From: Escherichia coli
Lineage (GTDB): Bacteria; Pseudomonadota; Gammaproteobacteria; Enterobacterales; Enterobacteriaceae
NCBI RefSeq assembly: GCF_003019035.1
Contig: NZ_CP027447.1
DNA length: 64,000 nucleotides
Reading direction: 5' to 3' (one strand)
Part shown: piece by piece, positions 7,889-19,024 of the stretch
How the letters are laid out: each line of letters begins with the position of its first letter
Numbering within the stretch: the first letter of the stretch is position 1
Made by a program: the position numbers and the translations under genes
The notes under the pieces: generated by a model
What the model saw: the letters and a program-made list of their open reading frames with translations, nothing else
Database searches by the model: none
Told to the model about the DNA's origin: nothing

Positions 7889-8049
7889 AATTCAAGTTTT
7901 CATGCTTATCCATACGTCTCTATATGTTTACGATTCAGTAAGTTAGCGTGAAAATCCTTCCCGATGCGTATCTGGTTTTCTCTCCGCATCGGGATAATTT
8001 GGTGGTCAGATCTGGGGTCAGTTTGGTTCGATTCTGGAGTGACCCCCAA

Positions 8050-9312
8050 ATGTCTTTAAACGATTCTAAAATCCGCACGTTAAAACCTTCTTCCCGTCCG
8101 GTAAAACTCTCCGACTCTCACGGTCTGTATCTGCTCGTCAATCCGGGCGGTTCACGCATCTGGTATCTCAAATATCGTTTCAACGGAAAAGAATCCAGAG
8201 TCAGTCTTGGCGCATACCCGCTGGTCTCACTGGCAGAAGCCAGGCAGCAGCGCGACGGTATCCGTAAGCTGCTGGCGCAGAATATCAACCCGGCGCAACA
8301 GCGCATGGCAGAGAAAACTGCCTGCTCTCCTGAAAAGTGCTTTAAGGCGGTGGCGCTGGCCTGGCACAAAACCAACAAAAAATGGTCGGCTGATTATGCT
8401 GCACGTATTCTCGCCAGCATGGAAAATCATATCTTCCCGGCGATTGGTCATCTGCCCGTTGCCACTCTTAAAACGCAGGATTTCACTGCTTTGTTGCGGG
8501 TTATCGAGGATAAAGGCTTTCTGGAAGTCGCGTCCCGAACACGGCAGCAACTCAGCAACATCATGCGCTATGCCGTTCAGCAGGGACTTACCGACAGTAA
8601 CCCAGCGCAGCATCTGGATGGCGTTGTCGCCTCCCCCGTAAAAAATCACTACCCCGCTTTACCGCTGGAGCGATTGCCTGAACTGCTTGACCGCATTGGC
8701 GACTACCGGCAGGGCCGGGAGTTAACCCGGCTGGCGGTGGTGCTGACGCTGCACCTGTTCATCCGCTCCAGCGAACTGCGTTTCGCCCGCTGGAGCGAGA
8801 TCGATTTCAGGCACAAAATCTGGACCATCCCCGCCACCCGCGAAGCCATCGACAAAGTACGGTTTTCCGATCGTGGCGCCAAAATGCGTAGTCCGCATAT
8901 CGTGCCGCTCTCCCGCCAGGCCATTGCCATTCTGAAACAGATACAGGAACTTTCCGGTCATCTGGATCTGGTGTTTCCCGGTGATCATAACCCGTACAAG
9001 CCAATGAGTGAAAACACCACCAACCGGGCGCTGCGCCTGATGGGGTATGATACGAAAACTGAAATCTGCGGACATGGACTCAGGGCGATGGCCTGTAGCG
9101 CCCTGGTGGAGTCAGATCTCTGGTCACGCGATACGGTGGAGCGGCAAATGAGCCACCAGGAGCGCAACAGCGTGCGTGCGGCATATGTGCATAAGGCGGA
9201 GCATCTGGAGGCCAGAAAAGCCATGATGCAGTGGTGGTCGGATTATCTGGATGTGTGCCGTGAGGGGTATATTGCGCCGTATATTTATGCCCGGCAGCAT
9301 AAGGCGGCCTGA
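8050..9312 (+). CDS. int: P4-type integrase (tyrosine recombinase, ~420 aa)
   Basis: Start MSLNDSKIRTLK...; C-terminal catalytic region with ...GHGLRAM... and terminal tyrosine segment; adjacent to tRNA-Asn. Confidence 0.85.
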   Translation: MSLNDSKIRTLKPSSRPVKLSDSHGLYLLVNPGGSRIWYLKYRFNGKESRVSLGAYPLVSLAEARQQRDGIRKLLAQNINPAQQRMAEKTACSPEKCFKAVALAWHKTNKKWSADYAARILASMENHIFPAIGHLPVATLKTQDFTALLRVIEDKGFLEVASRTRQQLSNIMRYAVQQGLTDSNPAQHLDGVVASPVKNHYPALPLERLPELLDRIGDYRQGRELTRLAVVLTLHLFIRSSELRFARWSEIDFRHKIWTIPATREAIDKVRFSDRGAKMRSPHIVPLSRQAIAILKQIQELSGHLDLVFPGDHNPYKPMSENTTNRALRLMGYDTKTEICGHGLRAMACSALVESDLWSRDTVERQMSHQERNSVRAAYVHKAEHLEARKAMMQWWSDYLDVCREGYIAPYIYARQHKAA

Positions 9313-9343
9313 ATCAGAAATAACGTAAATCATTAAAAATGTA

Positions 9344-9380
9344 AAAGCAGATCCTGATTGACCGGGATCTGCTTTTTTGT
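9344..9380 (+). terminator. Rho-independent terminator of the P4-type int gene
   Basis: Stem aagcagatcc / ggatctgctt followed by TTTTTT. Confidence 0.6.
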
Positions 9381-9430
9381 ATTGAGAGGTATTGCCGTTG
9401 TTTTTTATTATTATCAATCAGAAAGTATCT

Positions 9431-9885
9431 AAAATTATTTGGCCCCAAATAATTTTGGGTGAAAACCAATCAATAAACCACTTATCAATAGGTAAGTACC
9501 GGAAATTTTTCCGGTAGAATATTTTCAGGCGATTGCCTATTAATAAATACATTATTGATAGATAACTACCTTCTGTGATTTGCCCGCAAATCACAGAAGA
9601 TGAAAAACTATCAATACGTGATATTTTCACGGAAATACCAATTAATACTCCAGAATATCTCCTGACCATATACTCTGAAGCCTGTAAGAACTGCATCAGA
9701 TATTCAGAGACCAGATGGATATAAGTCTGAACTTATTTGGTTTCCAATAAGTTCAGGCGAAAACCTATCAATTCATCTGTTTTCAACAGGCAGCCACCTT
9801 CCATGATTAACATGTTAATCATGGAAGGTGAAAAGCTATCAATAATCGATATTCCCACGGAATTACCAATTAATACATCCCAAAA
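9431..9885. repeat. Palindrome-dense repeat block: two ~228-bp tandem units each carrying a different perfect palindrome, plus further palindromes sharing a TATCAATA motif
   Basis: Perfect palindromes at 9431..9456 (12-bp arms), 9497..9516 (9), 9570..9599 (14), 9795..9830 (17), all with 2-bp centres; conserved 52-bp segments 9601..9652 and 9829..9882. Confidence 0.6.
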
Positions 9886-16600: not shown

Positions 16601-17422
16601 GAGCCACTGGTCGAGAGCCGCTATCTCTACGACCCGCTGGGCCGCCGGACGGGGAAACGGGTGTGGCGTCGCGAGCGTGACCTGACGGGATGGATGTCGC
16701 TGTCGCGTAAACCGGAGGTGACATGGTACGGCTGGGACGGCGACCGGCTGACAACGATACAGACCGACACCACACGTATCCAGACGGTATACCAGCCGGG
16801 AAGCTTCACGCCACTTATCCGTATCGAAACAGAGAATGGTGAGCTGCATAAAGCGCAGCGGCGCAGTCTGGCGGAGAAGTTGCAGCAGGAAGGAAGCGGG
16901 GACGGTCACGGCGTGGTGTTCCCGACTGAGCTGGTGCGGCTGCTGGACAGGCTGGAGGAGGAAATCCGGGCAGACCGCGTGAGCAGTGAAAGCCATGCGT
17001 GGCTGGCACAGTGCGGGCTGACGGTGGAACAACTGACAACACAGGTAGAACCGGAGTACACACCGGCACGCTCACTGCATCTGTATCACTGTGACCACCG
17101 TGGACTGCCGCTGGCGCTCATCAGCGAAGACGGCAATACGGCGTGGAGCACGGAATATGACGAGTGGGGAAACCAGCTTAACGAGGAGAACCCGCATCAT
17201 CTGTACCAGCCATACCGCCTGCCGGGGCAACAGTGCGATGAGGAGTCGGGACTGTACTATAACCGTCACCGATACTATGATCCGTTACAGGGACGGTATA
17301 TCACCCAGGACCCAATCGGGCTGGAGGGGGGATGGAATTTATACCAGTATCCATTAAATCCTGTTATTGATACCGATCCGCTGGGTTTGTGGGTTTGTGG
17401 GTTTTTGCGCTTCCAGCTATAG
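13643..17422 (+). CDS. rhs: PAAR-Rhs protein, RhsA/B/C-type core, truncated 9 codons after the core-end DPxGL motif
   Basis: N-terminus [11 protein letters not shown]...[14 protein letters not shown] (PAAR); YD repeats; core end [28 protein letters not shown]; frame broken by 8-bp duplication at 17385..17400. Confidence 0.85.
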
Positions 17423-17778
17423 TTGAAGGCGTTAACTGGTTCTTAGTCGCCAGTGCGGCTGCGGGTGGCGCGGTTTTAGCGACTCCAAGTGATTCTCAGC
17501 AAACTAAAAAGAAAACAGAGAGCCTAACAAACTGTCCAACAATACCCCCCGAAGATCCATGTGATAAAAAAATTGATGACAGGTTATTAAAAAAAATGGA
17601 CATATCTGATCCCCATCAAGTGAAAAAAGATTGGATGGGCGACGGAGCTAAAATATCAAGGTTTGATCTATGTGGTTGTAAAGATGGTAGAGTGGTGATT
17701 AAGACTAAGGATCTTAATGCTAAAACCAAGGAATGCAAAGGAAACATTGCATCTCCTACTGAATATAACTGGAAATAA
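17401..17778 (+). CDS. Rhs C-terminal toxin domain (~125 aa), out of frame with the core
   Basis: Frame continuous with the core if one gtttgtgg copy is removed; low-GC, lysine-rich variable tip typical of Rhs-CT. Confidence 0.5.
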
Positions 17779-17781
17779 TTT

Positions 17782-18084
17782 ATGAAACTAACTGTTGAGT
17801 TACATGGTATAGACCCTGCGAAGGGTGAGTGGTTCAGTATATCAAAACATAAGTCTGATAATTACGATCATGATCTTTTATTATATATTATTAATAAAGT
17901 CTTAGATGAAGGTGCTGAATATAGTAGCAATGGGCTTGAAGGATTAAGGGCTCTTCATGTTGAATTATCAGTTGCAGTTATTGCTGATGAAGATGGTTTC
18001 AGACCTGCATTTGACCTTGATGCGCGAACAATCAGCAGACTTAGCGCCGCGGGCGCTTCTTTTGATTTCGACCCATATGTATAA
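17782..18084 (+). CDS. Putative Rhs immunity protein (100 aa)
   Basis: Small low-GC ORF starting 4 nt after the Rhs-CT stop. Confidence 0.5.
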   Translation: MKLTVELHGIDPAKGEWFSISKHKSDNYDHDLLLYIINKVLDEGAEYSSNGLEGLRALHVELSVAVIADEDGFRPAFDLDARTISRLSAAGASFDFDPYV

Positions 18085-19024
18085 CTGGCAGAAGTAATAG
18101 TTTAGCGTAAAAAAACAAATGAAAAATACTTTGCTTATAAACAAAATCATTCGAGGTGCATCAAGGTGGTAAGTTTTCAATCCCTTGGGAGCATAGCTAA
18201 CTATGTGACCAAGAGTTTGAAAACGCAGCCAACATAGAGGTAAGGTGTTGTCGGCCTACGGCCTCCGCATAAAGGACTTTATACCCGCCCCGTAGAGGAA
18301 GATCGGACACAATTAATGGAGCAATTAATGCCAGCGTGTGGAGCGGGTGCTATGATGATCGGGCGCAAAAACGCACGTCGGGAAATGTAAGTTAACAGTT
18401 AGCGCACCGTTATCTTACATTGAACGCCAGCAGCAATTCACTCATGCTTGGCTTACTCTTAGGCAGTATGTATACAATAAATCTTAACCCGGTGTCGCTT
18501 GAACAAAAGGTGGTCATTCTGGTGGTCTTGACAAACTCAATTTTTAGGTTTAGCTTACCAATCAGCCAGTTAATGGCTACGGCGATCCCAGTCAGAGGAG
18601 CCAAATTCTAAAAATTTCGCTTGTATCGTGCAATGCAACTCATCTACATTAAGCATTGATTCTTTAACGAAGAGCGGGTTTGTCATCTTAAGCGCCCTCG
18701 ACCTTTATGGTTGGGGTCGTTTTGTTATGGACGCCGTCTACAGCTTTCCTGTCGAGAGTGAGAAGTTACGGTCATTTTTGTGCCACATAACCTTCTGCTG
18801 GCAAAGAGTTCAGCACTATCTTCTCTACTCCGTCCCTATATTCGTCACCATTGCCCCCTCGATTATAAAACTTGAGTAATTCAGTAGTCTCCCCTCTTGC
18901 AACTCACACCCAAAACTGCCTAACGAAAAGTTATTAATTTTCAATCATATTGCTATCAGGATTTATATTTTTTCGCTGTGCTAGAAAGGGCGCATTTATG
19001 TTAGCTCGTTCAGGGAAGGTAAGC

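Follow-up and report, generated by a model that had tools for sequence, protein, structure and literature searches.

In Escherichia coli, the asparagine tRNA gene asnT is known as the insertion site of the high-pathogenicity island (HPI) (PMC5595812, PMC10562709), and orphan Rhs loci have been described in Shiga toxin-producing E. coli O22:H8, where "pathogenic islands 3-5" hold Rhs-Tox-JAB-2/NTF2 (bioRxiv 10.1101/2024.03.05.583533). The element analyzed here, a 10.7-kb island at asnT in a 64-kb stretch of E. coli DNA (the whole of which we call the window), combines these two well-known things: it is both an integrase-borne asn-tRNA island and an orphan Rhs effector locus. We hold with considerable confidence that it is an integrative genomic island inserted site-specifically into the asnT 3' end, that it belongs to a family of asn-tRNA islands, and that its Rhs cargo is broken as sequenced. 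The window corresponds to E. coli SCU-301, a strain from a rectal swab of a healthy student, at 99.99% identity across an 11.6-kb stretch around the island. The sole difference in those 11.6 kb from the SCU-301 RefSeq record is one extra T in the window at 13619 (CAGGCCAGATGAGCC versus CAGGCCAGAGAGCC), 24 nt upstream of the Rhs start codon.

The island shares with the HPI of E. coli its insertion site and the same type of asn tRNA 3'-end repeat. It measures 10.7 kb, whereas the HPI in E. coli is 32 kb (PMC10562709). It also differs in lacking ybt/irp/fyuA, in having a backbone in which an EFASI RNA precedes a second recombinase and a C4 RNA precedes ORF153 and a Ner-like gene, and in carrying cargo related to type VI secretion (T6SS). 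An earlier reading of the window, made from the letters alone (hereafter the sequence-only reading), had held that the cargo is neither a siderophore nor a pks locus; in agreement with this, neither the RefSeq annotation nor family searches of the island open reading frames (ORFs) revealed ybt/irp/fyuA or clb genes.

As in the O22:H8 loci, the island has an orphan Rhs core, a variable tip and an immunity gene, and relatives of the island carry exactly the DUF4329/NTF2 pair. The passages on Rhs in that preprint (10.1101/2024.03.05.583533) are silent on an integrase, att sites and backbone RNAs, and the tip found here differs in being Ntox33-like, in occurring in 1 of 5426 complete E. coli genomes and in being frameshifted. 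Some of the orphan Rhs loci described in E. coli probably belong to the asn-island family. A second counterpart is the PAAR-RhsA-Ntox33 gene of Salmonella pathogenicity island 19 (SPI-19), in which the same pairing of toxin and immunity families, Ntox33 with DUF4279, was reported on an Rhs scaffold (PMC13304343). The SPI-19 gene is located inside a T6SS island, whereas the gene described here is on an integrase-borne island far from a T6SS. The closest homologues of its tip are Salmonella Rhs fragments, which are 43-64% identical.

Santoriello and colleagues are said to have described, in 2020, a T6SS effector/immunity module in Vibrio cholerae, Aux3, that is carried by an att-flanked integrase element apart from the main cluster, and excision of this prophage-like element has reportedly been demonstrated. 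Aux3 and the island differ in bacterial group, integrase, attachment site and effector type. In the literature, to which our access was limited, we found no account of the asn-island family as such and no description of this asnT Rhs island, the O145:H28 genome papers included.

Boundaries and integration of the asnT island

The integration target is the tRNA-Asn(GTT) gene asnT at 7813..7888 on the plus strand (ARAGORN; Rfam tRNA, 72.6 bits). The final 16 nt of the tRNA 3' end together with AATTC constitute the attL core (7873..7893, plus strand), an exact copy of the 21-mer CCAGTCAGAGGAGCCAAATTC. A second exact copy, the attR core, lies at 18588..18608 on the same strand, a position also supported by alignment of the attR site, and the two copies enclose 10,715 bp. 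Three further asn tRNA genes were identified by ARAGORN at 33015-33090, 34839-34914 and 37247-37322. These differ from CCAGTCAGAGGAGCCAAATTC by 1-2 nt, all within 5 nt after CCA, and the resulting five matches to the 21-mer were reached by none of 100 shuffles. The attR copy is outside any tRNA gene and is preceded by island DNA up to 18588. Thus, the 21-mer is not simply present at every asn copy, which had been raised as a possible objection to the island.

Both ends of the island recur in other genomes. The left end, AAGTTTTCATGCTTATC, adjoins the attL core and is common to all family members. The right end (18502..18587, plus strand), which corresponds to the P' arm and terminates in GGCTACGGCGATCC, was found in 170 genomes although the cargo next to it is unique, and its position agrees with the attR alignment. 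Strain CB7453 has the empty site, and since its tRNA gene runs straight into the sequence to the right of 18608, the 10,715 bp represent a clean insertion. Empty alleles are frequent, contrary to what would be expected if this DNA were ancestral sequence inherited at asnT: a probe spanning the contiguous mtfA-asnT-yeeJ junction matched 2668 of the 5426 complete E. coli genomes. The sequence-only reading had proposed that the tRNA-Asn 3'-end repeat of 21 bp brackets a 10.7-kb island and that the other three asn copies are unoccupied, and both proposals were borne out by these comparisons. In the window, asnW lies between yeeN and yeeO, asnU between yeeO and cbl, and asnV between nac and ldtA, with each flanking gene pair directly adjacent and no insert.

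The first gene of the island, which starts 162 nt after asnT, encodes a full-length tyrosine integrase of the P4/HPI type (8050..9312, plus strand, 420 aa; NF007246, E 3e-70; phrog_1). Its product aligns without gaps over its full length with the HPI integrase of strain Nissle 1917 at 71% amino acid identity, and the DNA just inside attL is homologous to the HPI left end. The anatomy of the locus and the comparative data together make integration by an HPI-like integrase into the shared asn tRNA 3' end a well-supported prediction. The integrase would recombine attP with the identical 3' end shared by the four asn tRNA genes, and attP would join the island right end to CCAGTCAGAGGAGCCAAATTC and this in turn to the island left end. 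The predicted attP junction is ...GGCTACGGCGATCC-CAGTCAGAGGAGCCAAATTC-AAGTTTTCATGC..., and the predicted empty attB is asnT-AAATTCTAAAAATTT. Integration would restore the tRNA and leave a direct repeat of 16-21 nt.

A family of islands at asn tRNA genes

The island is one of many. Its backbone, 9313-13642, is covered to at least 80% in 203 complete genomes, and members located at asnT, asnW and asnV have the same backbone at 88-94% nucleotide identity. The shared part runs from int through an AT-rich repeat block, EFASI and the second recombinase, sometimes higA, and C4 to ORF153 and the Ner-like gene. To the right of it is a variable cargo slot that holds T6SS spike or effector modules. All members that were sampled have the same left end after the tRNA gene, and wherever the right boundary lies within the fetched DNA, ...GGCTACGGCGATCC precedes a repeat whose length varies with the site from 16 to 21 nt. 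Junctions of the island right end with the asnT flank occur in 261 genomes, and junctions with the asnW flank in 95. The suggestion that the Rhs gene is cargo of a mobile element is therefore upheld by the same backbone at asnT, asnW and asnV in other E. coli strains and at an asn tRNA gene in Escherichia albertii.

The cargo itself varies greatly. At asnT, strain RM13516 (O145:H28) has tssG-tssF, vgrG, two unknown genes and PAAR; NC22 and E41 each have an Rhs gene with a different tip; and strain 114 has lost its cargo along with the 5' end of yeeJ. At asnW, JNE21-009 carries Rhs with a TPR protein and MRY15-117 carries DUF2169 with Rhs fragments. At asnV, PSJ-12 has Rhs-DUF4329 and TUM14664 has an Rhs gene annotated as RHS element core protein, each with NTF2 immunity. 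In SA31-1 the island is situated beside yeeJ and contains DUF2169, a 4.6-kb PAAR-like protein gene and an orphan Rhs tip. All 10 of the sampled members that keep cargo have cargo related to the T6SS, namely other Rhs tips with NTF2, TPR or unknown immunity, vgrG with PAAR and tssF/G, or DUF2169 with a PAAR-like protein.

The family extends beyond E. coli. The right-hand part of the island, including an intact Rhs-toxin gene, is also present on an E. albertii contig (Logan SRR30213228). This DNA is 98.3% identical to the window, whereas the flanking amn-shiA DNA of the contig is only 80% identical. Since the same tRNA site is also empty in the E. albertii type strain, the sequence comparison argues for a recent transfer between the species. 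In the same contig, two family right ends (at 1413 and 4725) flank amn-shiA in inverted orientation, which suggests that neighbouring asn tRNA genes of this isolate hold two members of the family.

A related arrangement may bear on where these islands came from. At a tRNA-Asp gene of ET826 (6440-19669 of the fetched DNA), a recombinase-higA backbone with 82% nucleotide identity retains fragments of a P4-type integrase, a truncated second recombinase and higA, and it adjoins a T6SS cluster with tssE, tssF, tssG, tssH, tagJ and tagK. Thus, the asn islands may be reduced descendants of an island that carried a T6SS. We tentatively put forward, as a possible reading that may well need revision, that the asn-tRNA islands form a coherent family of integrative "effector shuttles" derived from the edge of a T6SS island, in which one HPI-like integrase hops among asn copies and Escherichia species, a slot is reserved for T6SS cassettes, and the element has its own RNA control, with C4 acting on ORF153 and the Ner-like gene and EFASI placed before the second recombinase. 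On the shuttle reading, the second recombinase preceded by EFASI may act on the nearby palindromes that bear TATCAATA.

Such a small integrase element, usable at four identical tRNA targets, would show how E. coli swaps contact-dependent toxins, and the family appears to spread cassettes of Rhs, VgrG and PAAR from strain to strain as well as between E. coli and E. albertii. For SCU-301 itself, the island amounts to an ordinary accessory element with an apparently broken toxin gene.

The Rhs effector and its proposed delivery

The Rhs core is encoded, as sequenced, by a 1259-aa ORF on the plus strand (13643..17422) that matches NF041261 with 2601 bits (cut-off 2000) as well as TIGR03696, DUF6531, RHS repeats and the RHS domain. 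It carries YD repeats and the DPIGL...DPLGL end motif, and it stops 10 codons past DPLGL, with the toxin tip resuming in another frame at 17389. The tip is out of frame because 8 bp immediately behind the DPLGL cleavage motif are duplicated in tandem (17382..17397, plus strand), so that TGGGTTTG occurs twice (17382-17389 and 17390-17397). The intact allele has one copy: removal of one TGGGTTTG unit yields a single 1375-aa ORF, a 99% identical protein in a public assembly reads through, and the DNA of the E. albertii contig has a single TGGGTTTG unit. The sequence-only reading had described a PAAR-Rhs with a C-terminal toxin and immunity genes. The core, the tip and the immunity gene are present, but core and tip lie in different frames; as for the PAAR label, there is no PAAR hit in Pfam or NCBIfam, only the literal peptide PAAR at residues 5-8.

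The tip (17389..17778, plus strand) consists of a hydrophobic stretch followed by about 85 aa that include DPHQVK, and its match to Pfam Ntox33 (PF15533) is weak, with E 0.004-0.011. Among 43 homologues, 15 match Ntox33 at E<=0.001, the best at 1e-8, and H34 and K37 are invariant. The original description of Ntox33 gives the motif as [DN]xHxxK (PMC3482391), which DPHQVK fits. A structure model of the tip (pLDDT 80) gave no fold match. We predict from these sequence features that the tip is a divergent Ntox33 of the nuclease class. The next gene (17782..18084, plus strand) encodes a 100-aa protein, presumably the immunity protein, with a weak match to Pfam DUF4279 (E 0.019). The one complete E. 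coli genome with this toxin/immunity cassette, out of 5426, is SCU-301 itself, and on the cassette side only the last 86 bp of the island are common to other genomes.

The window has no annotated T6SS structural gene and no linked vgrG or chaperone gene, in keeping with the sequence-only reading; the genes of the window include yeeJ, a GT9 glycosyltransferase gene, shiA, amn, yeeN, yeeO, cbl, nac, ldtA, cobUST, the pdu operon and sbcB. The rest of the genome was approached with a chimeric query that joined the SCU-301-specific cassette to a T6SS-2 tssC probe, which revealed T6SS-2 tssC elsewhere in SCU-301. The cluster is at aspV, 1.87 Mb away, and includes hcp, vgrG and its own Rhs gene. The search beyond the window thus identified a T6SS-2 cluster with Hcp and VgrG, and the suggestion that the Rhs gene is an orphan effector for a distant T6SS fits this arrangement.

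According to RefSeq, tssH, vgrG and the T6SS-2 Rhs gene of SCU-301 are frameshifted. In tssH and vgrG (NZ_CP051751.1, 3,885,001-3,935,000), however, most single-base gaps occur at CC-GG where strain Sakai has CCAGG or CCTGG. Such gaps are the typical nanopore error at Dcm-methylated sites. Because these methylation-site indels look systematic, pseudogene calls in the SCU-301 assembly are unreliable, and the T6SS-2 cluster may be intact after all. We do not rely on the T6SS-2 pseudogene annotations, since the indels sit at CCWGG sites.

How might the effector work? An intact 1375-aa protein would enclose the tip in an Rhs shell and cleave it at DPLGL, and would be fired by the aspV-linked T6SS-2 via VgrG. 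By analogy with the linked vgrG-rhs arrangement in T6SS-2 clusters, we infer that T6SS-2 and VgrG would be the delivery route. A search of the PDB showed that chain B of the Rhs toxin Tse5 begins at the residue aligned with Rhs residue 48 (PVNP), which suggests that the island Rhs has an equivalent N-terminal piece. As sequenced, the 8-bp duplication breaks the fusion between core and tip, and the effector is probably inactive since a separately translated tip would not sit inside the Rhs shell. What is maintained may instead be the intact immunity gene, which could still protect the cell.

An alternative is that the element is retained for the protection it gives when neighbours fire Rhs-Ntox33, with its toxin part dispensable. 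The effector is split but the immunity ORF is intact, and relatives, MRY15-117 and SA31-1 for instance, commonly have immunity genes and Rhs tips as orphans. We nevertheless doubt this explanation: expression of the immunity gene past the frameshift would have to be assumed, and the rarity of the toxin type in E. coli (1 of 5426 genomes) implies weak selective pressure.

Several points weigh against an integrative island whose Rhs cargo is a broken T6SS effector. The N-terminal 47 aa of the Rhs protein have no PAAR match in Pfam (PF05488) or NCBIfam, and loading onto VgrG is assumed by analogy with the E. coli Rhs literature. No excisionase, recombination directionality factor, Xis or AlpA-like protein was recognized among the small ORFs. 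Either int or the second recombinase gene is a pseudogene in many family members, so that much of the family may be immobile today, and an assembly by itself cannot demonstrate a circular form or excision of the island. The SCU-301 assembly has single-base deletions at CCWGG sites, and although the 8-bp duplication is not at a Dcm site, the indels in this assembly call for checking at the level of reads.

The last of these points raises the possibility that the frameshift is an assembly artefact and that the strain makes an intact 1375-aa Rhs-Ntox33 effector. The "frameshifts" of tssH and vgrG in the same assembly, located at CC-GG where Sakai has CCWGG, would be precedents, as would the one-base difference at 13619 between the window and the RefSeq record. 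We consider an artefact distinctly improbable, however, because the duplication is an exact 8-bp tandem copy at a site with an existing near-repeat (TGGGTTTG TGGGTTTTTG). The site is neither a Dcm site nor a homopolymer, and slipped-strand duplication is biologically normal there.

The frameshift can also be taken, along with other signs of decay, to mean that the island is a fixed relic that entered asnT once, is now inherited only vertically, cannot excise, and carries the Rhs gene as decaying junk. The pseudogenes of int or the second recombinase in many relatives, the loss of cargo together with the yeeJ 5' end in strain 114 and the lack of a recognized excisionase are compatible with such a history. 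In the window, however, both int (420 aa) and the second recombinase have their full length, and the two 21-bp repeats match perfectly. Moreover, E. albertii has a 98.3% identical copy of a cassette that only 1 of 5426 complete E. coli genomes contains, which points to recent transfer. A fixed relic is therefore unlikely in our view, and an integrative island remains the preferred reading of the element.

Second recombinase, backbone RNAs and neighbouring DNA

Downstream of int there is a terminator-like hairpin (9343..9376, plus strand), found as an inverted repeat and by a consensus scan, and then the AT-rich repeat block (9462..10393), which was delimited by a repeat search and is 92-93% conserved in relatives. 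The block contains two 131-nt direct repeats (9518-9648 and 9746-9876) with one palindrome each (9553-9616 and 9795-9830). Of the 12 matches to TATCAATA in the window, 5 are inside 9462-10393, compared with an expectation of 1.7 for the whole window. This cluster of TATCAATA in and around the two palindromes resembles a protein-binding array, and one may ask whether the second recombinase or the Ner-like protein binds it. Two further ideas were considered and set aside. The palindromes were rejected as integrase arm sites because they are on the far side of int, over 1.4 kb away from the attL core. An invertible segment flipped by the second recombinase would have flanking inverted repeats, and the repeat search gave just local palindromes and direct repeats.

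The second tyrosine recombinase, named integrase domain-containing protein in RefSeq, is a 294-aa protein encoded on the minus strand (10628..11512) with Pfam matches to PF12834 Phage_int_SAM_2 (E 1.5e-40) and PF12835 Integrase_1 (E 8.9e-60). Directly upstream of its gene on the same strand, 57 nt before the start of the recombinase, is a full-length EFASI RNA (11569..11697; Rfam RF02957, 97.4 bits, gathering score 51.2). In the Rfam description, as cited by PMC12370729, EFASI is a motif of unknown function that occurs upstream of integrase genes. STAXI, the usual partner of EFASI, had no match even at E<=10 in an Rfam search of the island repeat block and spacer, and neither the palindrome block nor the spacer matched any other RNA family beyond chance-level microRNA and snoRNA hits.

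Between EFASI and the Ner operon is a GC-rich spacer (11698..12324) without a match in Rfam, PHROG or NCBIfam. In relatives, a higA antitoxin gene lies near the right end of the spacer; higA is missing in the window, and about 390 bp of the RM13516 island that hold part of higA are absent from it. The GC-rich stretch as a whole measures 0.8 kb (~11585-12410), and its left edge is the EFASI RNA. The sequence-only reading placed this stretch after the Ner operon and called it non-coding. On both counts it needs correction, as the stretch lies between the second recombinase and the Ner operon, and the GC-rich and intergenic DNA holds two RNA genes of Rfam level, EFASI and C4.

The Ner operon is on the minus strand. 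Its first gene, ORF153 (12662..13123), has no match in Pfam, NCBIfam or PHROG, and it is followed by the gene for an 84-aa Ner/SfsB-like helix-turn-helix protein (12411..12665; NF007670, E 7.5e-34; phrog_769, transcriptional repressor). The pair is conserved in other islands. Downstream of the Ner-like gene, a hairpin on the same strand (12325..12370) with 20-nt arms that are 90% complementary is likely the operon terminator. Upstream of ORF153, also on the minus strand, are a C4 antisense RNA of the phage P1/P7 immI type (13177..13264; Rfam RF01695, 69.3 bits against a gathering score of 45) and, before it, an isrK-like leader with a1/b1 target sites (13284..13361). The leader scores slightly below threshold in the window for both c4-a1b1 (42.7 bits against 46.7) and isrK (47.8 against 50), and above threshold in relatives. 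EFASI and C4 were conserved in the four family members that were checked, RM13516 among them, and these orphan Rfam motifs now have a defined, testable genetic context.

In phage P1, C4 of immI blocks translation of the first downstream gene, a mechanism reportedly worked out by Citron and Schuster in 1990. The island shares the layout of P1 immI, in which one pair of target sites (a1/b1) lies upstream and another (a2/b2) at the first gene's ribosome-binding site. Exact word mapping placed the C4 loops GUCAGUGAGG at 13222-13213 and AGGCUAA at 13206-13200, with complementary sites CCUCACUGAC and UUAGCCU upstream and UUAGCCU and CUCACUG downstream. The a2 site CUCACUG (13142-13136) abuts the Shine-Dalgarno sequence GGAG before the ORF153 start codon. 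In terms of whole-length duplex energy between C4 and its flanks, the upstream target was no better than shuffles, because C4 is very GC-rich. The Rfam match and the target complementarity support the prediction that C4 controls ORF153 and the Ner-like gene. As in phage P1/P7 immI, in which c4 controls icd-ant, and in Salmonella IsrK, a C4-family RNA is found in the leader of its predicted target operon. The setting is an island instead of a phage, and the targets differ from immI in not being homologues of icd/ant, since no family matches ORF153 and the other gene of the operon is Ner-like.

The phage character of this module, in combination with the P4-family integrase, could indicate that the island is a P4-like or PICI-like (phage-inducible chromosomal island-like) satellite mobilized by a helper phage, with the Rhs module as an accessory. 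A C4 antisense RNA of the P1/P7 immunity type, a Ner-like repressor and the occurrence of the C4-ORF153-Ner module in a thrW island remnant beside defence genes are in line with this idea. We regard it as highly improbable, because the island ORFs searched with PHROGs and NCBIfam had no match to a primase/replicase, a capsid-size or packaging gene, or AlpA/Xis, and because over one third of an element of only 10.7 kb is Rhs.

In MRSN346647 (11698-18078 of the fetched DNA), the C4/isrK-like/ORF153/Ner module is located in a degraded tRNA-Thr island and adjoins a 3.2-kb reverse transcriptase gene and an AbiE pair. An ORF annotated there as "ash family protein" overlaps the C4 RNA and is probably a mis-call.

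To the right of the island, the inverse-autotransporter gene yeeJ (18950-27007) is an uninterrupted ORF of 2685 codons in the window, and it is truncated or frameshifted in the island carriers NC22, E41, strain 114 and RM13516. In the DNA fetched from RM13516 (1-6509), the neighbouring tRNA-Ser gene is occupied by a prophage whose integrase is frameshifted; the same tRNA-Ser site (6732-6821) is unoccupied in the window. Farther along, at ~41300-58700, the window contains a complete propanediol-utilisation (pdu) microcompartment operon with pocR, pduF and a cobalamin riboswitch, adjoining cobUST.

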